A stretch of DNA of 64,000 nucleotides from a virus (taxonomy: Duplodnaviria; Caudoviricetes), in IMG/VR virus record IMGVR_UViG_3300026549_000043, positions 64,001 to 128,000 of that record. One strand, 5' to 3'. The stretch's first letter is position 1. Each line of letters begins with the position of its first letter. Shown one piece after another: positions 1,403 through 63,699 of the stretch. The notes beneath the pieces were generated by a model, which was not told the origin of the DNA, did no database searches, and saw nothing but the letters and a program-made list of their open reading frames with translations. Position numbers and translations under genes: made by a program.

Positions 1403-1622
1403 TGCTGATGTATTCAAAACAGAGTATGAAAATCTAATAACTTGGGTTTCTCATAGAGCAGAAAAGGCAAGATTAAGAGAATTTATCAAGGATATTCAGA
1501 ACCAACCAACAGTAAAAGCAATTCCAGTTGAATGGCTGAAAAGGTATGAAATTATCAAAGGACAAGAAGTACGTTTACAAGATGCTATAAACGAATGGGA
1601 GAAAGAAAATGAGACTAATTGA
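1389..1622 (+). CDS. MRLIDAD-family phage protein
   Basis: MRLIDAD...QPTVKAIPVEW...WEKENE; ends at 1652 if TGA=Trp. Confidence 0.75.
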   Translation: MRLIDADVFKTEYENLITWVSHRAEKARLREFIKDIQNQPTVKAIPVEWLKRYEIIKGQEVRLQDAINEWEKENETN

Positions 1623-1857
1623 TGCTGATGAATTAAAATATCGAACTGATAAAACTGGGTTTGGGTATATTATGGCATGAGAAGTCCATGGCACTCCCAC
1701 AGTTCCAGCAATCCCTGTTAAGTGGATAGAAAATTATATTAAACGGTATTATGGCACCGGTGACTTAGTATATCCTGAAGGATTTTTAAAAGAATTAGTG
1801 ACATGGTGGAGGTATGATGAAAATGAGTATAAAGAGAATACTTCTCAGACTGATTAA
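1609..1857 (+). CDS. MRLIDAD-family protein with internal TGA (missing from ORF track)
   Basis: MRLIDADELK...IMA[TGA 1678]EVHGTPTVPAIPVKW; both family motifs are in one frame only with TGA read-through. Confidence 0.75.
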
Positions 1858-1978
1858 GAAAATCAAGCACAAAAGATTCTGCAGGTTAAATGGGTATAGA
1901 TGCCCAGATTGTATATATCACGAATGGGTGTGGGAAGGTGCAACATTTAGAGGAAATAAATGTAGATATGGGAGATAA
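1823..1978 (+). CDS. small Cys-containing hypothetical protein
   Basis: 51 aa, CPDC motif, GGAGG upstream. Confidence 0.5.
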   Translation: MSIKRILLRLIKKIKHKRFCRLNGYRCPDCIYHEWVWEGATFRGNKCRYGR

Positions 1979-1984
1979 AGAAAA

Positions 1985-2371
1985 ATGGAAATTAATGAAT
2001 TATTAGAAAAAGGTTATAAAGAGTATTCTGTTGATGCTGAGTTTGATCCCAGTGTACATAGAATGTTCCAGAAGAGATTTGATGATGAATATGGTAAACA
2101 GTACTTTATTACAGTATATACTTTTAAGCCTTGGACACACCCATATACTCATGAAGAATTTATCAGTGAACCTGAGTTTAGAGTACAATTATATTCTTCT
2201 AATGACCATAAACCATTAAACTTAAACTTCTTCTCTGGTTGGTCTATTGATGAAGTAGAAGATTATGTTTGGAAAATCTTTATTATGTGCCAAAGTAACG
2301 GAAAGACATTGAGAATGTTTGACTATTATGAAAGGTGGGAAAAAGAAAATGAGACTAATAGATGCAGATAG
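1985..2371 (+). CDS. hypothetical protein, paralog of 4896..5219
   Basis: shares LLxxGYxE...MFQKRxDDxxGKxYFITV with 4896..5219; ends WEKENE. Confidence 0.7.
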   Translation: MEINELLEKGYKEYSVDAEFDPSVHRMFQKRFDDEYGKQYFITVYTFKPWTHPYTHEEFISEPEFRVQLYSSNDHKPLNLNFFSGWSIDEVEDYVWKIFIMCQSNGKTLRMFDYYERWEKENETNRCR

Positions 2372-2807
2372 AAAGCCTAATAAAATATATAAGGTGTATG
2401 CTGCACCTTATGCCTCTTATTATGAAGGCTATATAGTTAATGAATTTTGTATAAAGGAAGATGCAGAAAAATTAGCATTGGACTTAAATAATAATCTCCT
2501 GAGACAATATAATTATGAGGTTATCGAAGAAGATGAGCCTTATGAAAATTACCCAACAGTCGAAGCCATTCCTGTTTGGTATATAATTAGGTGGTATGAG
2601 AAAAGGTATAAATTGGGTTCAACAGTTGCAGATGATTGGGAGCGTGACTTTCTTAAAGAAAAAATAGTCAAGATGCATGATGACTTCAAGAATGAGAAAT
2701 ATCTTGACAATAAACAAGAATCAGAGAGATTTGCTCAAATGATAAAAGAAGTTATTGAGTTATATAACGATTGGGAGAAAGAAAATGAGACCAATGCTGA
2801 GTGTTAA
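2349..2807 (+). CDS. MRLIDAD-family protein with long variable inserts
   Basis: MRLIDAD...YPTVEAIPVW...WEKENE. Confidence 0.75.
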   Translation: MRLIDADRKPNKIYKVYAAPYASYYEGYIVNEFCIKEDAEKLALDLNNNLLRQYNYEVIEEDEPYENYPTVEAIPVWYIIRWYEKRYKLGSTVADDWERDFLKEKIVKMHDDFKNEKYLDNKQESERFAQMIKEVIELYNDWEKENETNAEC

Positions 2808-2994
2808 AGTAATTGATAGTGATACTGGTATTGAGTTAGATAAAGTATATAAATTGATTGCACCAACAAAATTTGATTATGAGTTTGTCGGTGATGAAAT
2901 AATGTATAGAATATATAGATGGAATTTTGCTTACTCAATAGCAGATGATTATGCTTTAAAATTAGAAGAAAAGATGGAGAAAGAAAATGGATAA
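2785..2994 (+). CDS. hypothetical protein
   Basis: bounded on both sides by the junction motif. Confidence 0.6.
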   Translation: MRPMLSVKVIDSDTGIELDKVYKLIAPTKFDYEFVGDEIMYRIYRWNFAYSIADDYALKLEEKMEKENG

Positions 2995-3268
2995 TGAAAT
3001 GATTACCCACGAGCAGGTAATGGAGTACTGTAAAAACCGTAATTACGCATTGGTTGATAAAGAGTATTTACATATTATTCTTGGTGATAAGCCTATGAAA
3101 TTATTTGGGTTACCGATAGAAGATGTAATGAGAATTGTAGAGATATATAAGTATAAGGGAGTTGTACCAACCACTGACTATACAGAAGGCTTTGAAGATG
3201 GGATGAATTATATGAAAACCTATTATGAAAAGGTTATGGACGAATTAATAAAAAATGTTATGAGGTAA
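2987..3268 (+). CDS. hypothetical protein
   Basis: ORF with GGAG RBS, TAA stop. Confidence 0.65.
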   Translation: MDNEMITHEQVMEYCKNRNYALVDKEYLHIILGDKPMKLFGLPIEDVMRIVEIYKYKGVVPTTDYTEGFEDGMNYMKTYYEKVMDELIKNVMR

Positions 3269-3275
3269 TTAGATA

Positions 3276-3786: not shown

Positions 3787-4000
3787 ATTAGATGAACTAT
3801 TTGATGTATTACAGAAGATAAAAGATAAGTGTAACTTACACGGCAAGGCAACAAATTGGAAATGTGATACTTGTCCCTTTGGCCTTAATGACCATTTGTT
3901 CTATTGTCAATTCATTCAAATCGCTGATTTATTCTATAGAGAACCAGCATTATGGGACTTAAAGAAGTTAAGAGAGATATTAAATGAAGGTCATTTTTAG
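3779..4000 (+). CDS. hypothetical protein with CxxCPF motif
   Basis: starts in junction motif. Confidence 0.6.
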   Translation: MDKLDELFDVLQKIKDKCNLHGKATNWKCDTCPFGLNDHLFYCQFIQIADLFYREPALWDLKKLREILNEGHF

Positions 4001-4262
4001 AATAAATGCTGACAATTTTAGAGATTATCTAGAAAGGGCTACTAGGTTAAAAGCAGCTTGGGAAGATTCTCAAGATCTTGATTGTATCATTGTCTCAAAA
4101 GATGTAGACGTATTTTTAGTTGACCCTGATAGTGAAATTGAAATTATGCCACAGCTTCCAGACTACATTTCTGAAGAAGAGCGCATTAAGGGTAATATAC
4201 CTATTGAATATTGTTTTGGTTGGAAAGATTGTTTAGATACAATAAAGGGGAATAAAGAATGA
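3984..4262 (+). CDS. hypothetical protein
   Basis: GWKDCL motif; TGA followed two codons later by TAG. Confidence 0.6.
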   Translation: MKVIFRINADNFRDYLERATRLKAAWEDSQDLDCIIVSKDVDVFLVDPDSEIEIMPQLPDYISEEERIKGNIPIEYCFGWKDCLDTIKGNKE

Positions 4263-4537: not shown

Positions 4538-4564
4538 ATAAATATAATAAAAGAGGTAATAATT

Positions 4565-5509: not shown

Positions 5510-6022
5510 ATGGGATTAGACTTTACAATTTATAAGAAGAAAGTAAATGAAACTTGTGAACAGGCTTGGAATGCTATAGTTAGTGAATGGCGTGAATCAG
5601 GTTATACTACTACCTCTGAAAGAGAGTTAGCCTATGGTCGTAAAAGCTGGGAATTAGTCTATGAATTAGTACCAGATTATGGAGACTATTTTGATTCTGA
5701 TGACCCAATCATTTCTAAAGAAAGATGGGATTCTTTAATGAATAAAATCTCGGAAATTGGCCCTAAGCTTGATAAGATCTGGGATGCTTTTAATAAAGAA
5801 GAAAAGGCCCCGGATGATTATCCTGAATTTATCTTTGGTGACGAAGAAAAGAAGCTTATTGCTGAGTATGAATACTGGTATGATAAGACTTTCGATGTAG
5901 CCCCAACTTTAGGATATTTCTTCTCTGTGGGTTATATTATGGATTTCTGGAATGCCAATGACCGTGTTCAGAAAGTTTTTGAAGACCCAGAGTGGGAAGT
6001 TAGAGCGAGCGTGAGCTATTAG
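5510..6022 (+). CDS. hypothetical phage protein (MGLD...YxRK family)
   Basis: AGGAGG RBS; MGLD N-terminus. Confidence 0.7.
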   Translation: MGLDFTIYKKKVNETCEQAWNAIVSEWRESGYTTTSERELAYGRKSWELVYELVPDYGDYFDSDDPIISKERWDSLMNKISEIGPKLDKIWDAFNKEEKAPDDYPEFIFGDEEKKLIAEYEYWYDKTFDVAPTLGYFFSVGYIMDFWNANDRVQKVFEDPEWEVRASVSY

Positions 6023-6762
6023 TGAAGTATTTTATTGTAGCTGATGTTCATGGTTTCTATAATGAAATGATTGAAGCCCTTGAAAAAGAGGGCTTTGATA
6101 AGACTAACCCTAATCATACTTTTGTCTCCTTAGGTGACTTATTAGATAGAGGTGAACAACCCAAGGAATGCTTAAAGTTTGTTAACAGTCTTGAAAGAAA
6201 GATCTTAATCGTAGGGAATCATGAACTCTTAATGGATGAAATGGCCGAAAGAGGTTACCCCAGAGATTATGATTTTAAAAATGGTACTCTCAATACGGCC
6301 AGGATCCTAACCAATACTAAGCCAGATGAGATCTGCTCAAATATGAAAGATAATGAACTTTATCAGACATACCGTAAAGAATGCAAGTTTTATCATGAGG
6401 TTGGAGACCATATCTTTGTTCATGGTTGAATTCCTTGCATCTATGCTGGAAAGTACAGTATTACTCCTGTAGCTTATAAGAAAGATTGGAGAGATGCTCC
6501 TTTAGTAGAATGGATTGACTCAACCTGGATCAATGGTATGTTAGCCTGGGCTGCAAAAATAAGAGAACCTGGAAAGACAATCTGGTGTGGACATTGGCAT
6601 ACTTCTTATGGCCATGCTAATTTACATAACTATGGAGTTGAGTTTCCGCACGAAAAAGGTGAAGAGGCACATTTCTCCCCTTTCATAGATGAAGGGATTG
6701 TAGCTATGGATGCTTGTACTGCCTATTCAAAAAAAGTTAATTGTAAGGTCATAGAAATTTAG
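6022..6762 (+). CDS. calcineurin-like metallophosphoesterase
   Basis: DVHG, GDLLDRG, GNHE, HG[TGA=W]IP, GHWH; track ORFs 6022 and 6538 are in frame and join through TGA 6427. Confidence 0.9.
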
Positions 6763-8887: not shown

Positions 8888-8989
8888 ATGAAGCATACAT
8901 CAACATTCTTATTATGACTCTTATTAGGTTTAATCATAGGACCATTAGGAGTAGCATACTTATTAGTTAAAACATTAGATGAGGGTTAA
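8888..8989 (+). CDS. small membrane peptide with internal TGA
   Basis: MKHTSTFLL[W]LLLGLIIGPLGVAYLLVKTLDEG; hydrophobic helix continues through TGA 8915. Confidence 0.45.
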
Positions 8990-11266: not shown

Positions 11267-11962
11267 ATGACCAAAAATGAATTATTAAAACTTGATTGTT
11301 TTTATGACAACGAATATTTACAACAATATGTAGATTTAGTTAATTCTAATATCAACACTGAGTATCAAAGTGGAATTACTGAATGCCATCATATTATCCC
11401 TAAGGTTTATTTTAAATATAAAAAGTTAGAAGTTGATAATAGTAATAGTAATTTAGTTAATCTAATTTATTGTGACCATGTATTAGCTCATTGTTTGTTA
11501 GCCTTGTCCTATAAAGATAAATATCTAATTTCAGCTAGTATAGATGGAGTATATGGAGTTTTAAATAGTTTTAATATTTATAAAACTTTAGAAGAATTCG
11601 TGAAAGATTTTCCTGAAGTTAAAGATATTTTAAAATGTAATCATTTTGTATCAGACGAGCAAAAGAAAAAATTATCTAAAATAAGCTCTAATTCAAATTG
11701 ATATAATAATGGGATAAAAGAAACTTTTACTATATATAAACCTATTGGTGACGAATGAATACCTGGTCGATTACCCTTTTCTGAGAAACAAAAAGAAAAA
11801 TTCAGAAATAACAGTTTAAAATGTCATTGGTATAATGATGGTAATAAAAGTGTTTTCGCTAAAGAATGCCCACCTGGTTTTATTCCTGGAAGAATAGTTA
11901 CTGATAAATTATTGGCTTCTAATAAAAGAAATGCTCAAAAAAGAAGAAAAAAGATAAAATAA
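11267..11962 (+). mobile_element. free-standing HNH homing endonuclease (231 aa, two TGA=Trp)
   Basis: ECHHIIPK...NLVNL...HVLAH; two C-terminal repeats [W]YNNG...[W]IPGR and WYNDG...FIPGR; lies between the topoisomerase subunit genes. Confidence 0.85.
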
Positions 11963-15800: not shown

Positions 15801-16661
15801 ATGGCTAATAATAATAAATCTTTAACCACCCGTAAATTAGAATATGATAAAATTGTTGAATTTAGAAAATTACATAGTATCGACTATCTAAATAATATAG
15901 CTAAGTTAATGGGTTATACAACAATATCAGAGGTATTTGATGATGGTTGGCCTATAACAGAACTAAAAAAATATAGTGATGAAGCCAGTAAATTAACTTG
16001 AGGGGCTGATATTCCAAATAGATATTGAAAATTTATGTGTAGAGAAGTTTGTAATGAATATTTAACTGAAAAATATGGGTCACCTAAAGATTACTTCAAT
16101 ACAGAAGTTTTTATTAAACGGAGAGTAACAAATATAGGTAACACTATGGAAACTAGGTATGGGTATAGAAATCCTGGCCAATCACCTGAACACCGTGAAC
16201 TTATGAAAAAGGGAAGTAATTGTAAAAATCCCTTTTCATCTGACTCTTTTAAATATAATTCATATATTCGTGGTAAAACGGTATTGCCAGAAGATAAAAT
16301 AGCATATGATGAATATAGAAAAAAGGTTGATAAGCTCACAGATATAAATAAACAAAATTTACCTTTTACAGGTATATGCTATTATACAGAATTACCTATT
16401 TTTAAATATGATGGTAATAAAACAATTAATAGAAATGATTGGAATATGGCTACAATAGATCATAAAATTTCTGTTATAGCTGGTTTTTTAAGAGGTATTT
16501 CTCCTGAAATTATTTCTAGTGTAGATAATTTATGTTGATGCTCAAAGTATTTTAATAGTTTCAAGGGTTCCAAATGTGAAGATGAAATTAGGCTGTCAGG
16601 TCTGATCGAACGATTTAAGGAGGTTATTAAAAAATACTATGCAAGTAGTGAAGGTGACTAA
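15801..16661 (+). mobile_element. free-standing HNH-type endonuclease between split-intein halves (286 aa, three TGA=Trp)
   Basis: track ORFs 15801 and 16035 join in frame; RYGYRNP helix motif; IDHKISV...NLC[W]CSKYFNSFK HNH-like core. Confidence 0.8.
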
Positions 16662-21368: not shown

Positions 21369-21600
21369 CCTTGAAAACTATACTGGAAAAATTATAGAAA
21401 AGCCATTAGAAGCCATAAAAGAAAAATGTTTAGATTGTTCAGTATATGATGAAGTTGAAGTTAAGTTATGTTCATGTACTGGATGTTCTTTGTGGCCTTT
21501 TAGATTTGGTACTAACCCATATCATAAGAAAAGAAATTTAACCGATGATCAAAGAAAAGCTGCTGCGGAAAGGATAAATAATGTCAGGAAAAAGAGATAA
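21358..21600 (+). CDS. Cys-rich hypothetical phage protein
   Basis: KCLDCS...C..CSLWPFRFG. Confidence 0.7.
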   Translation: MKANLENYTGKIIEKPLEAIKEKCLDCSVYDEVEVKLCSCTGCSLWPFRFGTNPYHKKRNLTDDQRKAAAERINNVRKKR

Positions 21601-21940
21601 GGTAAAAGATTCTGAAAGAGAGTCTATTATTGTACCTAATTTAAATAGATGCTTCGTGTGTGGAACTGATAAGGATATACATCTACATGAGGTATTTTTT
21701 GGCAGTTCGAACCGTAAAAAATCCAAGGAAGATAAAATGCTAATTCCATTATGTGGAATTCATCATAACCTATCTTCACAAGGAATTCATTATAATAAAG
21801 TTTTAGATAATAAGGTAAAGAAGCAGGCTGAAAAAATTTGGATAAAAACTTATTGTGATGAAAATCTTTCTAAAGATGAAAAGATTGGTTTATTTATTAG
21901 CCGTTATGGAGTGAATTATCTGGATGAGGATGAAATATGA
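21581..21940 (+). CDS. HNH-like/Zn-binding phage protein
   Basis: CFVCG...HEVFFG...PLCGIHH; ends TGA TAA. Confidence 0.65.
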   Translation: MSGKRDKVKDSERESIIVPNLNRCFVCGTDKDIHLHEVFFGSSNRKKSKEDKMLIPLCGIHHNLSSQGIHYNKVLDNKVKKQAEKIWIKTYCDENLSKDEKIGLFISRYGVNYLDEDEI

Positions 21941-27209: not shown

Positions 27210-30200
27210 ATGAATAATATTTTAACTGAGGCCATCGGCGAAGATGGTTTAAACTTCAGAGATATTTATAATAATTTAATGGAATCAACACATAATTTTA
27301 CTGAAGAATCTGGTGATTTTAAATTTGATTCTAGTTTCGAAGCTAGCTTAGCTGAGAATATTTTAAAGGATAAATATTCAGAAGTTGAAATTAAACCATT
27401 AGACATGGATGACGAAAATGAATTATTTTATACAGTACTTTATAAAGATCCTATTATTAAAGAGGATTATAAAGATTTAGATTTTCAAGATAATAAAAAT
27501 CCTGAGGGTACTCCATTAGGTAGTTTTGGTGAATCATTACTTTCTGAAGGACAGAAACCAGCCCATTGGGCAGTTATTAAATCTTCAGGTGGTAGAGGTA
27601 AAAATGGTTGGATAACTAATATCTCTGTTGAGGCTATTCCAAGTGAAATTAAAGACATGAATAGCCTTAAAGGATTTAGTACTTGGGGACCTAATAATCA
27701 ACATGTATCAAATAGATATAAGGCTGATTCTCTAGGTATATTTTCAACCAAAAAAGAGGCTCTAGAAAAAGTAAAAGAATTATTACGTAAAGAGCCTAAC
27801 TATAGAGCCTTTGGAACCAACGCTGAAGAAGTAGAATTACTCGAAAAAATTATTAAGTTTGGCTCTAAATGGCAGGTGCAATCTGAGAAAGGTAAAAATA
27901 TGGGAACTTATAATACTAAAAAAGAAGCCGAAGACAGATTAAAACAGGTAGAATATTTTAAACATATAAATGAAGGTATTTTTAGTAATATTGGTAAAAC
28001 CGCAAAAATAGCTATGTTAGCTAAATGGGTTTCTAATCATGCTGATAAGGTTCAATATTGCTCTAAAAGGGATCAAGATCGCATATTAGAATTATTTAAT
28101 GATATTAAACAGTATTCTAAGAATATTGACATTTTTGATAATACTGAATTTGAAGATGGCGCTGTTGAAGATATTTTAGGCAAAATTGAAGACTGCTATG
28201 AAGATATAAAGGATATTATTAAAAATTCACAAATACATGAAAGTTTTGATTCTGATACTGTAGAAATTTCTTCAAAAATAAAAAATATTAATAATAAGAT
28301 TATTTCACTTTTAAATGGAAGTGATTTAATAAATGAAGACCGTAAGTCAGATATTGAATCTACCCTTTTAGATGGTGAACCTACTTTCGCTGAATATATG
28401 GAAGATAATTATGGCATTGATATCTATGATGATGAAATTGCCGAGAACCCTGATGTAGAAGATCATTACTTAAATGAGTATGAAAGCTATTTAGATCATT
28501 TATATGATTTAGATGATGAAAGTAATTATGATGCAGCCCACGCTGCTGAGTGGATGGAAAGATATCCTCATGGTTACTATAATAATGAGAATGACTATTG
28601 CGTTGATGATGAAGATGGTAGCCCAGATATTGATTTTGAAGAAGACGATGTTGACCCAGATCAATTCTTACAGGCTTACGAGTTAACTAAAGACATGGAC
28701 GAAGATGAAGCTTGGGAATCTATTTCTCAAAGATTCGATAAGGAAAAAGATCTTGGATTCTGGGGACCAGATGAAGCTGAAAGAGGTAAACATGAGGTAT
28801 TTGATTACTGGAAAGAAATTTCTTTAAAGGAAGACTTTGATCCAGAAGATCTTGTTATTGAATGTCCTCAATGTTTAAATGATTTAACTTTTGTTGGCTA
28901 TCAGGGTGATTTAATTGAATTTAAATGTGATAGCTGTGAAAATTATTTCTATATGGATCCTAATACTAAAGAATTACTTTCACCTACTGAACTAGATAAA
29001 AGATATTTAACCGAATCTACCAATGATCTTTATTATTTTAAGATTACAGGCCCAGTAAGAAAGCAGCGTGGGTGGTCTCCTGATGATGAACCTACAGTCT
29101 TTGTAACTGGAATCTGTGATGAATTAAAGGGTAGCAGAGGTTTTAGAGATGGTACTCACGAATTCCGTGAAAGTGATTTAGAACGTGTTGGAGCTAAGGT
29201 CGGTGATACCGTAGCCTGTCATGTTGATTGGGAAACAGATTATGATGGTCATCTAGAGTTAGAAGTAGACGTAGTCAAAAAAGTAGATGAAGTTTTAAAA
29301 GAAGCTAAGAATAAGAATTATAGAGTAGAGCTTTATTATTATGACAATAATAAACCTGACGATGTAATTTATTTCGAAAATACAAAAGCAGCTTATAATT
29401 TCTGTAATAATAAAATTTCAGATAATGCAGATTATGATGATGGCCTTACTGGTATTTTAGTATTTAATGAGGCTAAAGATAAATTATTAAATACCTGGCA
29501 AAATGGTAGCCGAGGATGGGAAAATAAATCTAAGGCATTAACTGAAGAAGTAAACTTACAGCCTGGAGACGTTAAGTGGTCTTGGTGGCTTCATAGATAT
29601 TTAATTTATAAGGGGTTTGATAAATTTTCAAATAAATATGAGTTTGAGGACTTTGGAGATGATTTATTTGACCTTACGGCAGAAGAAGTTTCAAAATTAA
29701 AGGATAAATATGTTAGTAAAAATGAATCTTTAGATGAAGCAAAGACTCAAGAGTATGAGTATACACTTTATAACACGTTTTCAAAGAATTCGTTCCATAA
29801 GAAAGTAAAGTGCTCTTCTAAAGAAGAAGCAAAGAAGATCGCTGATGATGAGTTAAAGAAACTCCAAAAGAATGGACACTTTAAAGACTTTGTTGTTAAA
29901 GGTGTAAAAGAGCTACAAGAGTCTTTAGATGAAGCCAAAAACGATACACTTAATGCTGACATCTGAGATGAAAATAATGAATTAAGACCTGAAGTTAGAG
30001 AAAAATTAAATTTAATTGTAGAAAAATTTAAAGATAATTTATCTGAAGATGGCGTAGATCTAGATATATCAGATATTATTATAGTAGGATCTAACGCTAA
30101 TTATAATTATACTGACAAATCAGATATTGATTTACATATTATAGCTAACTTAGATATTTATAAAGATAAAGAAGATTTAGCAAAAATTGTGTATAATGCT

Positions 30201-30329
30201 TATAGGCGTTTGTTTAATGATAAATTCGACCCTACCATAAGAGGGCATGAGGTTGAGTTGTTTGTAGAGTCGAATGAGGATGATAATGATAATAATATTC
30301 CTGATGAGGTAGAAAATAACGAAGAATAG
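27210..30329 (+). CDS. large acidic mosaic late protein with C-terminal pol-beta-type nucleotidyltransferase N-half (1039 aa)
   Basis: reads through TGA 29964 into GSNANYNYTDKSDIDLH; many (L/I)xE motifs; CPQC..CDSC Zn ribbon. Confidence 0.75.
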
Positions 30330-37181: not shown

Positions 37182-37901
37182 ATGGACATTGATATTATTA
37201 ATCAAGCCTGGCCTTATGTAAAAAATTACATGGACTGATATTTAAATCCTGAACTAAATACACCTGTTTCAGAACAGGCTGAAGAAGAAGGAAAATCATT
37301 CAATGAAGTAGTAAGATATAATTTATTTGAGGATCCAGATACCTGGACAGATCCTGAAGTGGGAATAATTTATACTGGATGGTATGAAGACCCAGATTTA
37401 TATGAATACCTATCTTATTATGATGAAGATGATCCTGGTTATAGTGAATTAATTGATAGCTTAGTATCTAGGGCTAAAGACTATGTTTCTAATATTCTAG
37501 ATGGTAAAGATACGAATGAAGAAATTATAACAGAAGCTAAATCAAAAAACCCAGAAGAATTAGAAATAGAGACCGAAACAATTAAATCAGATCTTGAAGA
37601 CTTTGGCCCTGAAGGATTTTATGCTGTATCATTTGATAGATTCTCAAGAGAATTCCCAGAATTTACAAATACAGTAGTAAAAACTTTCTTATTAGATATG
37701 GGCATCTTAAATGAAGATGAATTAAATAACATTGATAATTTAGGTGATGAAGATGGTAATTATTGGAGTACTGGCCGATTGATTTTCCCTTCAGACTGAG
37801 AAGCTTTAATCGATGGAGCTGAAAGATTATATACTTTTAGGAAAGATAAAGGAATTCAGTGGGAAAAAATTTATAAATCTCATTATAAACCACAAAATTA
37901 A
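37182..37901 (+). CDS. acidic hypothetical protein (two TGA=Trp)
   Basis: GGAGG RBS and ATG 37182 in frame with track ORF 37359 through TGA 37236; second TGA at 37797. Confidence 0.7.
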
Positions 37902-39848: not shown

Positions 39849-40220
39849 ATGGCTAACTATATTGTTTGAAAAAATAATGTAATTTCAATGGTTAGGGGAG
39901 ATAACTTTTCTAATACTTTTGATTTGAATAAATATTTAGATAGTCATATCTTAGAACAATTGAGTTTAAATGGAGGAACTCTATATTTTGGATTAATGTA
40001 TCCAAATTCTCATTTTGAAGATTCTATTATTATTAAAGAGTATGTCCTAGAAGAATCTAGCGAAGATTATGAAGTAACCATCTTATTATCTCCAGATGAT
40101 ACTGAATTATTAATTCCAGGTACTTATTATTATACTCTTAAATTAGAAATTCAAGGTGGTTCAGAACCTAGTCAGGTTTATACATTAATACCTAAAACTA
40201 AATTTTTAATTATCGATTAA
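39849..40220 (+). CDS. BppU-like baseplate/fibre adaptor
   Basis: MANYIV[W]KNNVISMVRGD parallels the N-terminus of the next gene; DT..L.PGTYYY. Confidence 0.6.
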
Positions 40221-40235: not shown

Positions 40236-40724
40236 ATGGTAACTGTAAAAAATAATAACATAGTTATGACCAGAGGAGACTCTTTAAATTTAAAGGTTGC
40301 TATTATAAAAAGAAAGTCTGTATCAGGTGCAGGGCCATCTGATAGGCCTACTCCAATTCCTAGCGGAAAAGAAATAATAGAGCCAGGTTCTACTGATTTA
40401 GAAAATTGTGAAGTTAAATTTGCTATGAGTAGATTTTTTCCTGGCCAGGTAAAATATAAACTTTTATTAACAAAGGATATTCCAACTTCTACTTTAGGTT
40501 TAATTTTAGACCCAAAGGATACTAAGGATATTCCTCTAGGAATATATAATTATGATGTAAAGTTAAAAACTCCTAAGCCAATTTCTGAACAGGAAGACTC
40601 AGAAGATTTATGGTATATTGACACCTTTATTTCTGGCACAATCCAATTAATAGGTGAGTGCGAAGGAGAAGAAGGTGTAGTTAACGACTATATTCATGAG
40701 GATGGCGTAAATGGCAATATCTAA
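40236..40724 (+). CDS. BppU-like baseplate/fibre adaptor
   Basis: IVMTRGDS, PKDTKDIPLGIYNYDV. Confidence 0.6.
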   Translation: MVTVKNNNIVMTRGDSLNLKVAIIKRKSVSGAGPSDRPTPIPSGKEIIEPGSTDLENCEVKFAMSRFFPGQVKYKLLLTKDIPTSTLGLILDPKDTKDIPLGIYNYDVKLKTPKPISEQEDSEDLWYIDTFISGTIQLIGECEGEEGVVNDYIHEDGVNGNI

Positions 40725-43020
40725 TAGAATAAATAAATCAGAATTATCTGGATTTTTAATAAGGGATGAATTAATAACCACGGGTGACTTAGTTAGTGAT
40801 AACTTAGGTACCGGTGGGCTTTTGACTGTTGGAGATCGTGGAATTGATGGATTTTCTCCCATTATAAAAGTTACCCAGATAGAATCTAGTGAAGGTAAAC
40901 TTGGTTATATTTTAAATATTACTGACATTAATAATCCTTATGAAGGTAATAATTACGAAATTTGAAATGGTACCGGGATATCTGATGTATCATTAGATGA
41001 CGAATATCATTTAGTTATTAATTTTGATGATGGTACTCAATGGATTTCTCCTTTAAGTATTAGAGGCCCACAAGGCGAGCAGGGAATTCAAGGTGAACAA
41101 GGTATTCAAGGTGAAAAGGGTGACAAAGGAGATCCATTCACCTATGAGGATTTTACTCCTGAACAACTAGAAGGTCTAAGAGGACCGCAGGGTATCCAAG
41201 GTGAAACTGGACCTGTAGGCCCGCAAGGACCTCAGGGTATCCAAGGAGAAACTGGTCCAGTAGGACCTCAGGGCCCTAAGGGAGATACTGGTGATACAGG
41301 CCCTAAGGGAGATACTGGTGAAACTGGTCCACAAGGTCCTAAGGGAGACAAAGGTGATCCGTTCACTTATTCAGATTTTACACCTGAGCAATTAGAAGGC
41401 TTGAGAGGACCACAAGGTCCTAAGGGAGATAAAGGCGATACCGGAGAAACAGGACCGCAAGGACCGCAAGGTGAACCTTTTACTTATGATGATTTTACAC
41501 CTGAGCAATTAGAATCTCTTAGAGGTCCTCAAGGTATACAAGGTGAAAAAGGTGACCCATTTACTTATTCAGACTTTACACCAGAACAGTTAGAATCACT
41601 TAGAGGTCCTCAAGGTCCACAAGGTATACAAGGTCCACAAGGTATACAGGGTATTCAAGGTGAAACTGGCCCTACAGGTAATGGAATTCAAGATATAAAT
41701 TATTATTATGCAGTATCTGAAACTCAGGTAGCTCCACCAGCAGCTGAGATTACCAGTACAACAATACCAACTCTAAGTAATACTGATAAATATCTTTGGG
41801 CTAAGGAAGTTATTTCTTATACTAATTCAACAACTAAAACTTTAGTTCTGTTATTAGCTATTTACGGAGACCAAGGTATTCAGGGTATTCAAGGACCACA
41901 GGGCATTCAAGGTATTCAGGGCGAAACCGGTCCACAAGGACCTAAGGGCGACCCATTTACTTATGAAGATTTTACTCCACAGCAGTTAGAAGATTTAACT
42001 GGTCCTCAAGGGCCTAAGGGCGAAACCGGTCCACAGGGACCTAAAGGTGATGCCTTTACTTACGAAGACTTTACTCCACAGCAACTTGAAGATTTAACTG
42101 GTCCGCAAGGCCCAGAAGGACCACAAGGACCTGAAGGCCCACAGGGTCCTCAAGGCGAAAAGGGTGAAAGAGGCGAACCTGGAAGGTCTGGAAGCTATGA
42201 AGCTGGTAATTATATTGATATTACTGGAGAAGTTATTTCAGCTATTCCAATGTATGAAGCTGGAGATAATATTACTATTACTGCTGACTCAACTTCATCT
42301 GAAATCCCTAATATTTATAGAGAAATATCTTATATCCAAGGTGATGGCACTCAATATATAATTACAGGGGTACAATATGATCCTAATAGTAATTATGAAT
42401 TATCAACTACAATTAGAACCTCAGCTTCTCAGACAACTGCTACATCTTCTGGATGAAGTAATGGTGGAGCAGTCTGCTTTGATTTAAAAAATGGTAATTT
42501 ATTTTATTCTAATGGAGACGGCAGTACTACTAATATTGCTGCTGCTACAAAAACAAAGGTTACCATTTCAATAGATAACACAAATAATACTTCTGATTAT
42601 AACTATATACCTGAAGGGGTTAGTGTTTATTCTGATTCTAGAAGTAATTCAGGATTATTACCTACTACTAACTATCCATTATTAGCTTACACCGATTCCA
42701 ATGGAATAGCTGGTCAAATGAGTGGTTCAATTTATAGATTCACAGCTAAAAAGGACGGAGTATTAATTGGAGACTATGTACCAGTACAAAGGATCTCTGA
42801 TAATGAAGTAGGTTTATACGATATAATAAATAATGTATTTTATATTAATTCAGGTACCGGAAAGTTTACTGCCAGAGAGTTAGTAGCTCCAACATATACT
42901 ATTTCTTCAACAGATACAACTTATTCAGCTGGAAATGGTATTACTATTTCAAATCAGAATGTCATATCTATTAAAGAAGTATTATTATTAGATTGCGGTA
43001 CAAGTGTTATAAATATGTAA
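40711..43020 (+). CDS. collagen-like tail fibre (769 aa, two TGA=Trp)
   Basis: track ORFs 40711, 41401 and 42718 are one frame; Gly-X-Y runs; six FTYxDFTPxQL interruptions; C-terminal GLYD domain. Confidence 0.85.
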
Positions 43021-49619: not shown

Positions 49620-50762
49620 ATGTTTTATGGAAAGAACATTGGAGTTATACCTCTGACTGATGCTGCAGGTATAACTAAAGTATTCACTTGGCCTACTCAT
49701 AAAGGACTTGACATTGGTTGGAGTGAGCGGAAGTGGATTAACTGTCCCGTTTTACGGTGGCAGGATGGTGTAGTTGTTCAAAGAGGATATGGTTCTGAAG
49801 TTGGTAACTATATTGTTGTTGAACATTACTATGATGATACTAATACAAAAAGGTGGACAGGTTATATTCATCTTGATGCCTTTCCAACAGTAAAAGTTGG
49901 AGATAAAGTTACTCTTGGGAAACAAATGGGTAATGCAACTCGTGGAAATACAGGAAATAGCCATGGGGCACATTTACATATCTATCTTACTAAAGAAGTT
50001 TCTCAAAAAACTCCATATACTTGGGACACTATGTTAGCCAACAGTATTGATCCAAAACCTTATTTATATTGGAGTAAAGAGTTTAATTATAATTTTATTT
50101 CTACTGCATGGACAAAGGAGTTAAAGATGATAACATTTCCAACACCTGTTGAACGTAATGAAAAAGTTAATCAGGTTAATATTAAATCAGATACAAGAAA
50201 TTTAAGAACAAAACCATCACTAAATTCAGAAACTTACTCTGAATATTGTAAAAAAGGTATTTACAATGTCTATGATATTAAAGTTGCAGACAATTATACT
50301 TGGGGGTTAATTGGTACAATAGAAGGTAATAATTTTTGGGTTGCTATGATGGATGGTGAATATCTTCCTAAAAAGGAAATTAAATATCCTGAACCAATAA
50401 AAAGAGATACAACAGTACATCAAGTTGAAATCAAATCAGATACTCGTAGACTTAGAAGACAACCTTCTTTACAAGGAGAAGAATATGATGAACTTTGTAA
50501 AAAAGGTATCTATAATGTTCTCAAATCTCAAACAGCAGACAACTATAACTGGGCATTAATTGCTGTTATTGATGAAAATGAATTTTGGGTAGCAGTAATG
50601 GCAGGGGAAGATTTATCTGTAACTGATTATAAAAAATTATATGAAGAAGAACTTGAAAAGAATAAAGTATTAAATTCTAAATTAAATAATATCATTACTG
50701 AATTTAAAAATTTAAAGAGTAGTGTTAGTAAATTAGAAACAATATTAGAGAAAAATCAATAG
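49620..50762 (+). CDS. M23 peptidase with two SH3-like repeats
   Basis: HKGLD, YIHL, GNTGNSHGAHLH; duplicated IKSDTR.LR..PSL...NFWVA. Confidence 0.85.
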   Translation: MFYGKNIGVIPLTDAAGITKVFTWPTHKGLDIGWSERKWINCPVLRWQDGVVVQRGYGSEVGNYIVVEHYYDDTNTKRWTGYIHLDAFPTVKVGDKVTLGKQMGNATRGNTGNSHGAHLHIYLTKEVSQKTPYTWDTMLANSIDPKPYLYWSKEFNYNFISTAWTKELKMITFPTPVERNEKVNQVNIKSDTRNLRTKPSLNSETYSEYCKKGIYNVYDIKVADNYTWGLIGTIEGNNFWVAMMDGEYLPKKEIKYPEPIKRDTTVHQVEIKSDTRRLRRQPSLQGEEYDELCKKGIYNVLKSQTADNYNWALIAVIDENEFWVAVMAGEDLSVTDYKKLYEEELEKNKVLNSKLNNIITEFKNLKSSVSKLETILEKNQ

Positions 50763-55437: not shown

Positions 55438-55836
55438 ATGAGTACAATTATTGAAAAAGCTAGATATTTAAGAACAAAAATAGAACAGTTAGCAGAAACA
55501 TTACCTGATGCGGAAGCTTTAGATTATACTGCGTTATTTAAAAATTGGGTAGCAGGTACAGATTATGCTGTGGGAGATAGGGTTAAATATGAAGACTTAT
55601 TATATAAGTGTGTTCAGGCTCATACCTCACAAAGTGACTGGATGCCTGATGTAACTCCAGCTTTATGGGCAAGAGTTAGTATTGATGAGTGGCCTGAGTG
55701 GATCCAACCGACTGGAGCACAGGATGCTTATATGTCTGGGGACAAAGTTTCTCATAATGAAAAGCATTGGGTTTCAACTGCAGATAATAACGTTTGAGAG
55801 CCCGGTGTCTATGGCTGAAATGAGGTAACCGAATAA
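55438..55836 (+). CDS. carbohydrate-binding (CBM5/12-like) virion protein, two TGA=Trp
   Basis: YAVGDRV.Y..LYKCVQAHTSQ; NNV[W]EPGVYG[W]. Confidence 0.8.
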
Positions 55837-57230: not shown

Positions 57231-58133
57231 ATGGGAATAAATATTAGTTCAAATTATATACCAGCAATTAATATAAATACAGGTATATCTGTTTCAGGAA
57301 CTTTATCTGTAAATAGTAATTCTCTTTATGATGTTACAAATTATCAAACAGTAAATATAACCGGGGCCGAAGATCTTTTAAAAACAAGATTAAATACACC
57401 TTCACAAATTACCAGTTATAGTAATGATAACTTAACCTATCTAGCTCCTGCGACGTTTTATTCAACGGGGATTACAGCGGTAGATCTCACTGCTTGTACA
57501 AGTATTGGTAGTTATACATTTTATCAATGTTCATCATTAACTACAGCTAATTTTCCAAGTTGTACAACCATTGGTAACTACGCATTTTCAGGCTGTTACT
57601 TATTATCTACCGTAAGTTTCCCAGCCTGTACAAGCATGGGTAATTATGCCGTATTTTATAGCTGTCGATCCTTGACCTCAGTTGATTTTCCTGTTTGTAT
57701 AAACGTTGGCGTTTCAGCCTTTCGAGGCTGTTCATCCTTAACTACAGCTAATTTTCCAAGTTGTACAAGGATTGGTAACTACGCATTTTCAGGCTGTTAC
57801 TTATTATCTACCGTAAGTTTCCCAGCCTGTACATACATTACTAACTATGCCTTTGCCTATTGTTACTTATTATCCTCAGTAAGTTTCCCAAGTTGTACAA
57901 GGATTGGTAGTGCTGCATTTAGAAATTGTTACCATCTACTTTCATTATACTTACTAGGCAGCAGTTTGTGCTCATTGGGTAATGCTAATGCTTTTTCTTC
58001 TACACCAATCTCTGGATATACCACATCAACCGGCGGGGTATATGGTTCAATCTATGTACCTGCATCATTATATAATTCCTATATAGTGTCAACAAATTGA
58101 GTAAACTACTCTTCAAGGTTTGTTAGTGTATAA
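57231..58133 (+). CDS. BspA-type LRR protein (TGA=Trp near the C-end)
   Basis: STN[W]VNYSSRFVSV matches paralog STNWVAYSSRFVGV. Confidence 0.85.
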
Positions 58134-58782: not shown

Positions 58783-59964
58783 ATGACAGTTCAGATTTAT
58801 GAAAAAGACTTTCCTATTTATTCATTAGATTTTATAAAATCTAATAAACATTGGATTTCAGCCTATGGTGGATTTAATGGATTATCTCCTTATTATGCTG
58901 AAGATTCAAGAACAGGCCTTACTATACCTAACTGTGTACCAATGGTATATGGTTATTGGCATTGTATGGGTGAATGCACAACGCCAAAGGAATTAAAATT
59001 ATCTCCATATAATGCTAATTCTTTCTTTGGTTACCCAGATGGTTATGAAAGAAGCGAGACTGTACCGAAGGTAGGAGCTATCATTTGTTGGAAGGGTGGC
59101 TCTGATGGTTATGGTCATGTAGCAATTGTTACTAAGGTTAGAGAGAATTCAAATGGAACATATACTATTAATACCTTAAATAGTGCTTACAAATCAACTA
59201 TTTATTATGAAAGAGAATTAACGACACCATTTAATTTTAGAAGTTATGTTTGTCAGGGATTTATCTATTGCCCATTTATTATTCCAGATCCGGCTCCACA
59301 GCCAACACCAAGTGATAAGTTCGAAATTGGTGATGATGTAGTTGTTGATGGACCTTTATATAAGAGCTCTAATGCTACAGTAGAAGCTGGATATGCTGAT
59401 GATGTAATTACTAAGGTTACTAGAAAGAATCCTGGATCAGCCCACCCTTATAATACCACAGGTGATTTAGGTTGGTGTGATGAAAGTTCATTAACTAAAT
59501 ATGTAGCTCCTACTCCTACACCAGATCCAGAACCAACTCCTGAGCCAACCCCTGAACCAGAGCCAGCTCCAACTTATAAATATAAAGTTGGGGATAGAGT
59601 TATCATTACAGGAGACTTATATAGAGCTAGTTATAGTGAAGAACCAGCTGGTTATATTAAGGATAAGGTTACTACAATTACTCGTTTGGCTGAAGGTGCT
59701 CCACATCCATATAATACCACAGGTGATTTAGGTTGGATGGATGAAGACTCTATTAAACCATACGAAGAAGATGTATTAAAAGTTGGAGATAAGGTAGAGC
59801 CTATCACAAATAAACAATATAATGGTAGATATGCTGTCCGTTGGGATGAATACTATTATATTACAGAGTTACAGGGTGATAGAGCTGTATTATCTGCTAA
59901 GCGTGGTAATAAAATGGTAGTATGGTGTGCCATGAATGTTAATAATTTAAGGAAGGTTGACTAA
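58783..59964 (+). CDS. CHAP-domain endolysin with SH3-like repeats
   Basis: NCV..YG, PKVGAIICW, GHVAIV; two PYNTTGDLGW repeats; PTPEP linker. Confidence 0.85.
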   Translation: MTVQIYEKDFPIYSLDFIKSNKHWISAYGGFNGLSPYYAEDSRTGLTIPNCVPMVYGYWHCMGECTTPKELKLSPYNANSFFGYPDGYERSETVPKVGAIICWKGGSDGYGHVAIVTKVRENSNGTYTINTLNSAYKSTIYYERELTTPFNFRSYVCQGFIYCPFIIPDPAPQPTPSDKFEIGDDVVVDGPLYKSSNATVEAGYADDVITKVTRKNPGSAHPYNTTGDLGWCDESSLTKYVAPTPTPDPEPTPEPTPEPEPAPTYKYKVGDRVIITGDLYRASYSEEPAGYIKDKVTTITRLAEGAPHPYNTTGDLGWMDEDSIKPYEEDVLKVGDKVEPITNKQYNGRYAVRWDEYYYITELQGDRAVLSAKRGNKMVVWCAMNVNNLRKVD

Positions 59965-60256: not shown

Positions 60257-60324
60257 TTTTATAATATTTTCTAAGGTCTTACCCTACTGCTAAATTTATT
60301 ATATAAGGTAAGACCTTATTTTGA

Positions 60325-61140
60325 ATGAGAGGTGTTCTTATGTTAGATCATGGTCTTGGATGTATTTGTAGTCCTACTGATGTTAGAGATTATAAATTAG
60401 CTAGGTCATCAGTTTCTTCAGTAGAGTTGCCTGAATCTTTTGAATGTGAAAAAAGAAGTAGAGTTAAAGATCAGAGGTCAGTTGGATCTTGTGTAGCTCA
60501 TGCTGCTAGCTCAATATTAGAATATCATTATTCTCCTAATAATAGATTATCTACTAATTTTATTTATGGAATACATTATAAATTATTCGGGTCAGAAGGT
60601 CCTGGAGTTAGTCTAAGGGAAGCTTGTAAGATTATTTCTAAATATGGTGACCCTGAATTAAAATATTGTCCAGGTAATACTGAAGTAGAAAAAGTTTATG
60701 ATTTAGCAGAAGAGTGTTTTGATAATCCTGAGGCTATGGAAAACGCCTCTAAATATAAAATAGATAATTATGTAAAATTATTAAGTGATAAAGATATTAA
60801 ATATTCTATTTTTAATTACGGACCGGTATTAGCTGCTATAGAATGATTTGATTATAATGGCTGTGATTTTAAAGGTAAGCTAATAAAAAATGGTATATCT
60901 GAAGGTTACCATGCTATTATTATATATGGGTGAAATAAGGATGGATGGCTATGTCAAAATTCATGGGGTATAACTTGAGGAAAGTCCGGATATTTTATTC
61001 TCCCTTATGATTATAAAATAAGAGAAAGTTATTCATTTGTGCCATCTTCATCTTTTGAAGAATTAGAAGTCCCAAAAAGAAATTCTTTCTTAGATGTATT
61101 TTATAAGATTATTAATTGGATTTTAAATTTTTGGGGGTAA
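60325..61140 (+). CDS. papain-like C1 cysteine peptidase (three TGA=Trp)
   Basis: DQRSVGSCVAHA; HAIIIYG[W]; QNSWGIT[W]GKSGY. Confidence 0.88.
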
Positions 61141-61142
61141 AA

Positions 61143-61787
61143 GTGAAGATTTGTATTGGAATTATTAGTTATTTACCAGATAACCAAGACATCAAATTAA
61201 AACGTTTATCAAAGTTAAATAATTTAATTTCAAGCTGTGATAGGCTTTTTAAATTACCAATAATTATCATTTCTCAAAATTGAAATGAAGTTAAATTAAA
61301 TAAATTAAATGATTCAAAGTTAATTATATATAACTATAAAAACCCATTAGGTATTACTAAGGCTAGAAAAGAATTAAGGAAAAAATTTTTGTCTTCTGAA
61401 TATGACTATCTAATAATGTTAGACGACGATAGTGAATTAACTGGTACCCCTGAAGGTGCTCAGGGATATTTAGATCAAATTTATGAACACCCAGATATGT
61501 ATGGAGTTTTTAAATCAATGTTATTAAAATTATTTGCTATATCAAGGACGGTTTATCAATTAGTTGATTTTCCTGATTTAGAAGCCGGAAAAGGTGAATT
61601 TTTTGAAGATATGTATTTAATAATGTCTCTGAATAAAAAATATCCAGATAAAAAATTTATTTTTAAAAGATATGGAATAAATGAAAGTTCGAATTCTTCA
61701 AGTGACCCATTATCTACTTGGTATCATAAACAATTCATAAAAAGAAATATGGGTGATAGAACTCGTGAACTAGTGAGGAATCTTTAA
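61143..61787 (+). CDS. GT-A fold (GT2-like) glycosyltransferase
   Basis: GTG start, TGA 61281; LGITKARK, YDYLIMLDDD, FED. Confidence 0.7.
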
Positions 61788-61788
61788 G

Positions 61789-62448
61789 ATGTTAAGAAAG
61801 TGTATTGGAATAATAAGTTATTTCCCTGATGATTTAAAAGAGATACGGGAATCAGATTTAAATAATTTATTAAGAGATTGTTCTACTTATTTCCCATGAG
61901 TTGATGTTATTATTGTAGCTCAAAATTATAAAGGGTACATCCCTAAGTCTAATAAAAATAGAATAATTTTATATTCTTATAAAGATAAACTGGGAATCAC
62001 TGGTGCTAGAAAAAAGTTAAGAGAAATATTTATTAATTCTGAGTATGATTATCTAATAATGATGGATGACGACAATCAAATACTTGGAAATACTAATAAT
62101 AATCTATTAGAAGTTTTAGAGAATAACCCAGATAAATTTATTTGTTTCAATTGAGATTTTGGGCAATTATATTTATTTACCATTTCAAAATCACTTTTTA
62201 AAAAAGTTGAATACCCAGAGTTAACTGCAGAGAATGGAGAAATCTTCGAAGACTTGTATTTATCTCAGATATGTAAAGCTTTATGCCCTAATTATATCGA
62301 TTCTAAAGAAATAAATATTACTAGTAAAACTAGTGGTGATAAAAGTACTTGGTGGAATAATTCTTATAACTTAAAAAGAATGGTAGCTAATACTTATAAA
62401 TTAATTGATAGTGATTTAAAAAATAAATATGGAACAATTAAAAAATAG
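61789..62448 (+). CDS. GT-A fold (GT2-like) glycosyltransferase, tandem paralog
   Basis: TGA 61897 and 62152; CIGIISY, LGITGARK, YDYLIMMDDD, FED. Confidence 0.7.
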
Positions 62449-62467
62449 AAGTCAGCTTCTATTTTTA
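62441..62467 (+). terminator. intrinsic terminator
   Basis: AAAATAGAAG-TCAG-CTTCTATTTTT. Confidence 0.6.
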
Positions 62468-62505
62468 TTAGCTAAATTAAATATATATAGGTTAGGAGGA
62501 AAGAT

Positions 62506-63699
62506 ATGGCTGTTGATAAAATAGATACAAAGGGATTAATCCCAACGACTAATTCATCTACTAATCAAGTAAATAGTCAAATATTTACTACTAACCAAAA
62601 TGCTAGTATGAATGTGGCTGAATCTGGAGGAACCTTTTCTTTTCTTTATGATCCAAGTATTTCTGAGCCTATTTTAGATATAAAAAATGATGATGATAAT
62701 CTTTATGTAACTAAAATATCTAACTATAATAATTTTTATTATAAACGTGGTTATCATTATAAAAATAACGCTTTCCCAAGTGGTGGCTATAGTACAGCTA
62801 TGAATATGTATTCTGATAACTGAGATAGAAGTTGGTATTCTAAACAAGGTTATAATAATGCCTCTAAATTTGATAATTATACTGTCTTAGCTAATTGTGT
62901 AGGGTGGGCCAACGCTAGAGTATTAGAAGTTTGAAATAGAGCTTTAAAGAATGGATATATAAAATATGATGCTAGTAAGCAGGGTTATTTTTTAAAGAAT
63001 GGTTCTCCAATTACTGGTAGAGTTTATGATAATGTAACAGGTAATGGCCCTACACCACCAGCTTGTAATGCCGTCAATTTTTATAAATATTGGCCAACGG
63101 CTACTGGATGGTCTAAGGGGTCTGAGCCAAAGGTAGGAGCTTTAATTGTTTGAGGAGCTCATTATAGTACTTCTGGTAACCCTGGACATGTAGCTTTTGT
63201 AGAAAAGGTAGAAGATAATGGCGATATAATTATTTCAGAATCTTCTGCTGCTAATAGTGGTATACATTGGCTGGTTCAGTTATATAAATTGAAAAAAAGT
63301 AATGGCTATACTAGATACTACGATCATGTCTTAGTAGGATTCTGTTATTCACCTGTATGTGAATTAGCTAGTAGTAATGGATATAGAACTGTTACGGAAT
63401 TCGGTGGTATTATCGAACCTACACCTGAACAAATAGAAGCTTACAATAAGGCTGTTGAAAATATTTCAGGATTAACCGTCGAAGTTGAATTTGATCCCAA
63501 CGATAAAGTTGAAATTGTATGGTTAGGTAGTAAAGATCCTAATGGAGATTTTAGTATAAAAAGCAGAGTTAATAATATGGGTGTAATTGGTATAGTCGGT
63601 AACAAAATAAATGGAGCTAAATTCCCATATCCGGTTAGACCAATTAACAGTAATTATATAATAGGCTATTACCGATGAGAAGATTTAAAACGTGTATAA
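62506..63699 (+). CDS. second CHAP-domain peptidoglycan hydrolase (397 aa, four TGA=Trp)
   Basis: NCVGWANAR, PKVGALIV[W], GHVAFVE appear only on read-through; in frame with track ORF 63289. Confidence 0.82.

Follow-up and report, generated by a model that had tools for sequence, protein, structure and literature searches.

Is TGA a stop or a sense codon in the virus recorded as IMG/VR entry IMGVR_UViG_3300026549_000043, and, if it is sense, which residue does it specify and in what kind of cell? The question was raised by a stretch of 64,000 nucleotides (hereafter the window, bases 64001–128000 of this 139,874-bp record), in which an earlier reading of the bare sequence (the sequence-only reading) had noted about 30 in-frame TGAs joining adjacent open reading frames (ORFs) and had proposed that the phage reads TGA as tryptophan, as in translation table 4, while infecting a host with a cell wall. 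The virus is a large, tailed, uncultured phage from gut or rumen with a GC content of 31%, and the record was rated linear and 83% complete. Here, we found that TGA is used as a sense codon in this phage, and we considered it highly likely that UGA is decoded as Trp by the phage's own suppressor tRNA(UCA), only partially, and in a standard-code host that bears release factor 2 (RF2). Coordinates refer to the window unless marked as genome, and the genes given with two dots between their coordinates lie on the plus strand.

TGA Is Used as a Sense Codon

The 31 coordinates at which in-frame TGAs had been reported all carried this triplet, and 30 of them lay inside long ORFs of code 4. The remaining one, TGA 8915, was placed only within an unverified mini-ORF of 33 codons (8888..8989), which encodes a hydrophobic peptide with a single transmembrane (TM) segment and has neither a Shine-Dalgarno site nor a homolog. 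Across ORFs of at least 100 codons, we counted 80 in-frame TGAs and not one TAA or TAG, and thus a single stop codon was affected. TAA and TAG together occurred off frame at 8–10 per 100 codons; therefore, frames that stay open for 50–680 codons past a TGA are not a product of chance. Matches to Pfam and PHROG domains (Metallophos, AAA_5, Peptidase_C1, CHAP, CBM_5_12, HNH, and phrog_36119) ran across TGAs. The base after a mid-gene TGA was distributed as it was after TGG (p = 0.27) and unlike that after real stops, and no special read-through context was found at this base. The comparison of coding density that the sequence-only reading had suggested came out in favor of table 4, with 93.3% compared with 87.8% under table 11 in a non-overlapping ORF set of the genome. 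The same method gave 88.3% with TAG and 89.2% with TAA treated as sense, table 4 also swelled the spurious ORF coverage of the minus strand from 5% to 18%, and coding density alone was a weak discriminator for this genome.

Evidence That TGA Is Read as Tryptophan

We addressed the identity of the inserted residue by comparison with two relatives, the IMG/VR contigs G001 (74.5 kb) and G002 (64 kb), which are syntenic with the window at 35–77% protein identity and are recoded too. Over all alignments with relatives, 63 positions faced a TGA of the window; these were TGG at 19, TGA at 15, Gly at 3, and Cys at none. In the reverse direction, the in-frame TGAs of the relatives were matched in the window by 19 Trp, 15 TGA, and 9 Tyr. 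In alignments of at least 40% identity, the window's TGA faced Trp or TGA at 23 of 29 positions (79%), and Cys or Gly at none, and its TGG faced Trp or TGA at 216 of 273, likewise 79%. Given these equal proportions, TGA behaves as a synonym of TGG, and the similar distribution of the following base, described above, was an independent pointer to Trp.

Family motifs and internal repeats pointed to the same residue. In the papain-family (C1) peptidase of the lysis cassette (60325..61140), the Peptidase_C1 match (residues 36–227) crosses TGAs 60844, 60931, and 60976 (codons 174, 203, and 218); the last is the second Trp of NSWGxxWG, the other two face Trp in PDB homologs, and G001 retains all three TGAs. 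In a double CBM_5_12 carbohydrate-binding protein (55438..55836), TGAs 55795 and 55816 stand at both signature Trp positions of the second repeat (DW.P and LW in the first repeat and in PDB homologs, which are chitin-binding domains), where G001 has TGA and TGG. Each of the three pairs of internal paralogs quoted by the sequence-only reading, and each of its family motifs, was found as stated. One pair involves the CHAP-domain lysin (62506..63699; TGAs 62821, 62932, 63151, and 63676), in which GALIV-TGA at 63151 corresponds to GAIICW in a second CHAP protein; the CHAP match (residues 130–246) crosses codons 143 and 216, 63151 faces TGG in four of five relatives, and G001 has TGG at 62932 and CGA at 63676. 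Another lies in a BspA-type leucine-rich repeat protein (57231..58133), where STN-TGA-V at 58098 matches STNWV at 53684 in a paralog ending at 53728, and where paralogs in G001 have TGG and TGA at this codon. The third is found within an HNH homing endonuclease (11267..11962; TGAs 11699 and 11756; phrog_655 over residues 14–193), the internal repeat copies of which read TGA-YNNG and WYNDG.

The remaining genes supported this reading to different degrees. TGA 6427 of a NinI-like metallophosphoesterase (6022..6762) is codon 136 in the motif HG-TGA-IP and is crossed by both Pfam Metallophos (1–193) and phrog_246 (1–196); the PDB alignments for this protein ended ahead of codon 136. A MoxR-like AAA_5 ATPase (31124..32200), for which the PDB sequence search gave no match, carries TGA 31385 at codon 88 inside the AAA_5 match (70–214), and the TGA is kept in G001 (77% identity) and G002 (73%). 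TGG was found in a relative at TGA 1678 of an 82-codon ORF (1609..1857; G002 homolog, 73% identity), at TGAs 30487, 30967, and 31018 of a 250-codon ORF (30346..31098; all three in G002, two in G001), and at both TGAs, 37236 and 37797, of a 239-codon ORF (37182..37901). TGA itself was kept at 29964 (codon 919) of a 1039-codon ORF (27210..30329; G002), where phrog_36119 (904–1024) crosses it; at 61281 of a 223-codon ORF (61116..61787; two G001 paralogs); and at 40963 of the collagen-repeat tail fibre (40711..43020; both relatives), which is identified by Pfam Collagen and tail-fibre PHROGs and contains a further TGA, 42454, backed by frame continuity only. Frame continuity was also the sole support for TGAs 61897 and 62152 of a 219-codon ORF (61789..62448), where relatives of 37–38% identity have a gap, Ser, or Gly, and for two of the three TGAs (15999, 16026, and 16536) of a free-standing HNH/endonuclease VII-like gene (15801..16661), in which phrog_1035 (177–268) crosses the TGA at codon 246. 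In a 123-codon ORF (39849..40220), TGA 39867 is codon 7; G001 also has TGA here and G002 has AAA (Lys), and the true start could lie downstream of this position near the N-terminus.

Two protein families were divided between ORFs in these regions. The 247 positions of phrog_36119 were split, with profile 15–135 matching the C-terminal 120 residues of ORF 27210–30329 and profile 130–245 matching the start of ORF 30346–31098, which follows a TAG and is in a different frame; splitting of a gene, frameshifting, or domain shuffling could account for this. Similarly, Pfam DUF6267 was distributed over ORF 15288–15758 (profile 1–48) and ORF 16639–19788 (profile 79–371), with the TGA-bearing HNH gene 15801–16661 between them.

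A Candidate Suppressor tRNA Upstream of the Window

The sequence-only reading had seen no suppressor tRNA in the window, which was correct, and had pointed to the rest of the genome for such a tRNA, a tryptophanyl-tRNA synthetase (TrpRS), or release factor 1 (RF1). A tRNA(UCA) gene was indeed found 16.5 kb upstream of the window, and TrpRS and RF1 were not found. With cmscan, this tRNA was located at genome 47366–47459 with the anticodon loop CUUCAAA, and its best match was the selenocysteine (Sec) family tRNA-Sec (39.3 bits, E = 1.6e-5). At a relaxed threshold, ARAGORN reported a 98-nt tRNA(tca) at genome 47366–47463, labeled SeC, with a 7-bp acceptor stem, a long extra arm, G73, and an encoded CCA. 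Its 3' end lies 4 nt before a canonical tRNA-Trp(CCA), and the cluster to which both belong (genome 47–49 kb) further includes tRNA-Gln(UUG) and tRNA-Thr(UGU). An exact 22-nt search for the anticodon arm of tRNA(UCA) in viral contigs gave no match, and searches of the whole record with the RF-1, PCRF, and tRNA-synt_1b families revealed no release-factor or class-Ib synthetase domain. At the level of sequence, the assignment of UGA to Trp is supported by the family motifs, the interchange of TGG and TGA with relatives, and the genome-encoded tRNA(UCA).

Sense TGA Is Unevenly Distributed, and Some Genes Probably Still End at TGA

The proposal of table 4 held for the use of TGA as sense and for Trp, and did not hold in its strict form. 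In mid-gene counts, which omit ORF ends, the tRNA region, and 54855–54992 (artefacts of table-4 ORFs), 56 TGAs were found compared with 357 TGGs (13.6%; 56/413), and the TGAs were held by only 32 of 182 ORFs; the raw proportion of genes with an in-frame TGA was 29%. The frequency differed among gene classes. The TGA/TGG ratio was 9/11 in the lysis cassette (60325–63699; 45% TGA, p = 0.0004) and 7/12 in the three HNH endonucleases (37%, p = 0.008), compared with 9/45 in virion genes (17%, not significant) and 2/51 in genes for replication, recombination, and nucleotide metabolism (3.8%, p = 0.03).

TGAs within 10 codons of a table-4 stop were in excess (12 observed vs. 3.9 expected). Several of these near-end TGAs are sense, as 55816 and 58098 are TGG in G001 and the alignments run on past 55795 and 63676. 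Others, which the sequence-only reading had not mentioned, appeared to be terminators, either functional or legacy ones. The gene 998..1402 probably ends at TGA 1400, since its G002 homolog has TAA at exactly that codon, and the read-through tail contains two further TGAs within 10 codons. For the gene 3984..4262, the probable terminator is TGA 4260, which overlaps as ATGA with the start of the following gene (4259, behind a Shine-Dalgarno site). The gene 21581..21940 probably ends at TGA 21938, again in an ATGA overlap and followed by TAA, with the next gene starting at 21937; its homologs in both G001 and G002 end 1–2 codons away, with TAA. In addition, the TGAs at genome 61759, 63131, and 63304 stand in ATGA or GTGA stop-start overlaps with a Shine-Dalgarno site before the next gene, and for genome 63131, homologs stop at the position of the TGA or no more than two codons from it. 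From these sequence contexts, about six genes probably still terminate at TGA. Table 4 is thus an approximation, and UGA probably has both readings, with the choice set by the gene and presumably by the stage of infection. An ORF of 282 table-4 codons at genome 60928–61776 (window –3072 to –2224) contains seven TGAs and no TGG and overlaps the next gene through an ATGA at its end; if it is a gene at all, no other in the genome is recoded as heavily.

A Walled Bacilli Host Is Plausible

The sequence-only reading had deduced a walled host from CHAP and M23 lysins and holins. The lysins stood: an M23 peptidase, a virion-associated murein hydrolase (49620..50762; no TGA, 12 TGGs), scored 51.6 bits against the Peptidase_M23 cut-off of 28.7, and the two CHAP domains scored 38.6 and 51.4 bits, both over the Pfam cut-offs. 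The higher score belongs to the second CHAP lysin (58783..59964), which has no TGA and carries at its C-terminus a double repeat of about 65 residues that it shares with Bacilli. The holins were less secure; they comprised one 99-codon single-TM ORF (59957–60256), a putative holin, and the 33-residue product of the mini-ORF described above. A Shine-Dalgarno core was present ahead of 66% of starts compared with 11% of random positions, which argues for a host that depends on Shine-Dalgarno sites, such as a Firmicute.

We compared the CHAP protein 58783–59964 with species-representative genomes. The full-length match (61% identity) was a 30-kb contig binned as 'Alloprevotella sp.', which was rejected as host evidence; it carries siphovirus genes (Prophage_tail and DUF859; the GC content of a 6.9-kb stretch was 44.6%), and these tail genes of Gram-positive type mark it as a phage contig with a doubtful bin assignment. 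The lysin repeat was also found in four contigs of 12–15 kb and 28–30% GC, L031, L032, and L033 from a 'Bacilli bacterium' metagenome-assembled genome (MAG) and L034 from a Candidatus Coprovivens MAG; this genus is placed in the GTDB order RF39 (PMC8035907). Each of the four contains a protein-primed family-B DNA polymerase, a Phi29-like capsid protein, and an ORF of about 110 codons built of the CHAP-lysin repeat. They look like complete genomes of small phi29-like podoviruses binned in MAGs of small-genome Bacilli, and as such are weak host evidence alone. The repeat occurred, moreover, on the chromosome of a further genome of that Bacilli order, in an M23-repeat-LysM protein whose gene has spoVS and flavodoxin genes as neighbors. 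Genomes of this candidate order measure 0.6–1.6 Mb; mraY was present in five of five, and prfB scored above the curated cut-off in 40 of 41.

BLAST searches for spacer matches with window 44001–64000 against 151 genomes of the candidate order and with window 1–20000 against 401 genomes found none; they returned only chance similarity in AT-rich sequence, homology of gyrase and topoisomerase genes, and the lysin module, and no repeat arrays surrounded the best short matches. Because murein hydrolases are encoded, TGA is sparse and uneven, and the lysin module is shared with Bacilli that carry mraY and prfB, a walled, RF2-bearing, standard-code host among the small-genome Bacilli or other low-GC Firmicutes is plausible.

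Proposed Decoding and Alternative Explanations

On the basis of these results, we proposed, in keeping with a model already published, that the phage switches a standard-code, RF2-bearing cell during infection. The phage tRNA(UCA), which has a G73 discriminator, would be charged with Trp, presumably by the host TrpRS, and would compete with host RF2 at UGA. Replication genes would be readable in the standard code of the host, and a handful of small genes would end at TGA, several of them in ATGA stop-start overlaps. The lysis cassette, the homing endonucleases, and several virion genes would need UGA suppression to reach full length; thus, proteins for lysis and mobile elements would remain unmade until the suppressor is active. 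The competition, its timing, and the identity of the host are steps that we infer.

Several points weigh against this proposal. Distant relatives have non-Trp residues at 62152 (Ser or Gly), 62821 (Thr or Asn), 63676 (Arg), and 39867 (Lys), although these alignments are below 40% identity and such residues are expected of variable positions. The case for Trp comes from sequence comparison, and the charging of the tRNA is an assumption of the model. The tRNA(UCA) score of 39.3 bits is lower than the Rfam gathering score for tRNA-Sec (47), and ARAGORN misses the gene at default settings. The record (83% complete) yielded no gene for RF1, an RF2 inhibitor, or TrpRS that would account for out-competing host RF2. 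Virion genes as a class were not enriched in TGA, and recoding is not cleanly confined to late genes, since the Metallophos gene, the AAA ATPase, and the small gene at 1609 also hold TGA. Finally, the host assignment hangs on one shared module of about 65 residues, and a match to a spacer of clustered regularly interspaced short palindromic repeats (CRISPR) was lacking in the parts of the window searched.

A more specific scenario gives UGA two meanings separated in time, an early one as terminator of small genes, including the ATGA coupling, and a later one as Trp in the genes for lysis and endonucleases and in part of the virion genes, after the phage tRNA(UCA) has been produced, and it names as host a walled, RF2-bearing, small-genome member of the Bacilli of RF39 type, a relative of the Mollicutes. 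We regarded this combination as rather unlikely. If it were true, the phage and its host would represent a living ambiguous intermediate through which the UGA = Trp code of Mollicutes may have arisen.

The host itself might use table 4, being Mycoplasma-like and devoid of RF2, and the phage might merely share its code. Mycoplasmatales use this table, the phage is AT-rich, and the candidate host lineage (small-genome Bacilli including the RF39 genus; PMC8035907) is related to Mollicutes. However, phages of recoded hosts have in-frame TGA in about 90% of their genes (10.1101/2021.08.26.457843), whereas here TGA makes up only about 14% of mid-gene Trp codons, is confined to 32 of 182 ORFs, and is almost absent from replication genes. 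Several ATGA overlaps use TGA to end a gene, a tRNA(UCA) and three murein hydrolases are encoded by the phage itself, and the candidate order carries prfB (40/41 genomes) and mraY (5/5), which together make a host of this kind very improbable.

We considered it still less probable that the TGAs are real stops and nothing has been reassigned, with disrupted genes, faulty assembly, or stops that occasionally leak behind the pattern. A few TGAs do resemble terminators, but the frames are interrupted by TGA alone and never by TAA or TAG, 15 TGAs recur at the corresponding codon in relatives that were assembled independently, 19 exchange with TGG, and a dedicated tRNA(UCA) is encoded. Moreover, the terminase, portal, tail fibre, and lysins, which are essential, would all be broken.

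Selenocysteine or Cys, suggested by the best Rfam match of the tRNA to tRNA-Sec and by the ARAGORN label, has next to no probability, given that the match lies below the gathering score, that Cys faces the window's TGA in no relative whereas Trp or TGA does so at 79%, and that the dozens of TGA sites are spread across unrelated non-redox proteins and include the structural Trp positions of the papain and CBM_5_12 domains. Glycine (table 25, used by Absconditabacteria/Gracilibacteria and their phages) has as little, for although code-25 phages are known from animal guts (10.1101/2021.08.26.457843), Gly stood at none of the 29 window TGAs at the higher identity level and at 3 of 63 overall, compared with 19 Trp and 15 TGA.

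Relation to Known Recoded Phages

The statement of the sequence-only reading that stop-recoded gut phages of standard-code hosts had been reported before was borne out (bioRxiv 10.1101/2021.08.26.457843). Borges et al. described large low-GC phages from human and animal guts, cattle included, with TGA = Trp in standard-code Firmicutes or Bacteroidetes, in which TGA is nearly lost as a stop and then re-emerges as sense; lysis genes and an intron endonuclease bore most of the recoding, replication genes kept the standard code, and a suppressor tRNA was detected in only about 35% of the TGA-recoded phages (10.1101/2021.08.26.457843). Among them, the Agate phages are about 127 kb in size and include cattle samples (10.1101/2021.08.26.457843). 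By published description, the present phage resembles Agate, Jade, and Sapphire as a large low-GC gut phage with TGA = Trp, a phage tRNA(UCA), TGA depleted as a stop, a recoded lysis cassette and recoded intron or free-standing endonucleases, and standard-code replication genes; its raw 29% of genes with TGA falls inside the reported 26–71%. It differs from Agate, which has two replichores, by having nearly all genes on one strand and a one-signed GC skew in the window; from Jade, which has a 'code-change module' of RF1 and TrpRS, by the absence of such genes from our search results; and from all three by a suppressor tRNA that is long-armed, Sec-like, and missed by a default tRNA finder.

NCBI table 4 of the Mycoplasmatales and Entomoplasmatales is similar in that UGA specifies Trp through a tRNA with a UCA anticodon. 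In the present phage, however, TGA is a minor Trp codon, absent from most genes and apparently still a stop in some, and the change arrives with the virus in a cell that is most likely still equipped with RF2. The crAss-like and Lak phages that read TAG as Gln share a stop recoding driven by suppressor tRNAs, a bias toward late genes, and a standard-code host, but the codon and the amino acid are different. Peptides have confirmed TAG = Gln (code 15) in crAss-like phages, in a study that offers no such evidence on TGA = Trp (PMC9523058). The phenomenon was thus already published in 2021–22, and this genome is another example that opens no new question. It adds a case well supported by relatives, tRNA, and class bias for a private codon that would hold lysis and selfish-endonuclease proteins untranslatable until late infection. 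It also suggests that a suppressor tRNA can be non-canonical enough to evade the default finder, which may partly explain the low detection rate in TGA-recoded phages.

There are consequences for annotation as well. Under table 11, lysins, tail fibre, terminase, portal, homing endonucleases, and others were called as fragments; under blind application of table 4, some genes were over-extended or fused (e.g., 54855–54992 and 998–1456). Because both tables misread genes, mixed-code handling is needed. At window 54755–54991, a real acidic ORF of 78 codons was masked by a spurious table-4 upstream extension of its neighbor, in which nine off-frame TGAs were read as Trp.

Genome Organization

The gene layout was drawn from PHROG and Pfam matches. 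Nearly all genes lie on the plus strand. The record contains tailed-phage genes such as sheath, portal, terminase, T4-like topoisomerase II, and UvsX. The major head protein, head-tail adaptor, tail sheath, and tail proteins are encoded at genome 0–27 kb, followed by helicase, DnaB, primase, and DNA polymerase at genome 27–37 kb; the window contains the topoisomerase II subunits, a UvsX-like recombinase, homing endonucleases, the collagen-like tail fibre, the M23 peptidase, the two CHAP proteins, and the papain-like peptidase, and a tail fibre, the large terminase, and the portal are located just beyond its end. An exact direct repeat of 127 bp was observed at genome 1–127 and 138727–138853; the second copy lies 1.1 kb before the end of the record, and the repeat is thus not a terminal repeat of the contig. 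A topoisomerase query, made as a peptide-pattern search, returned no related viral loci. By its large terminase, the nearest cultured relative among GenBank phages was Bacillus phage vB_BceM-HSE3 (35.5% identity over 92% of the length), a 124-kb myovirus of similar genome size that also has T4-like replication genes and is a very distant relative.

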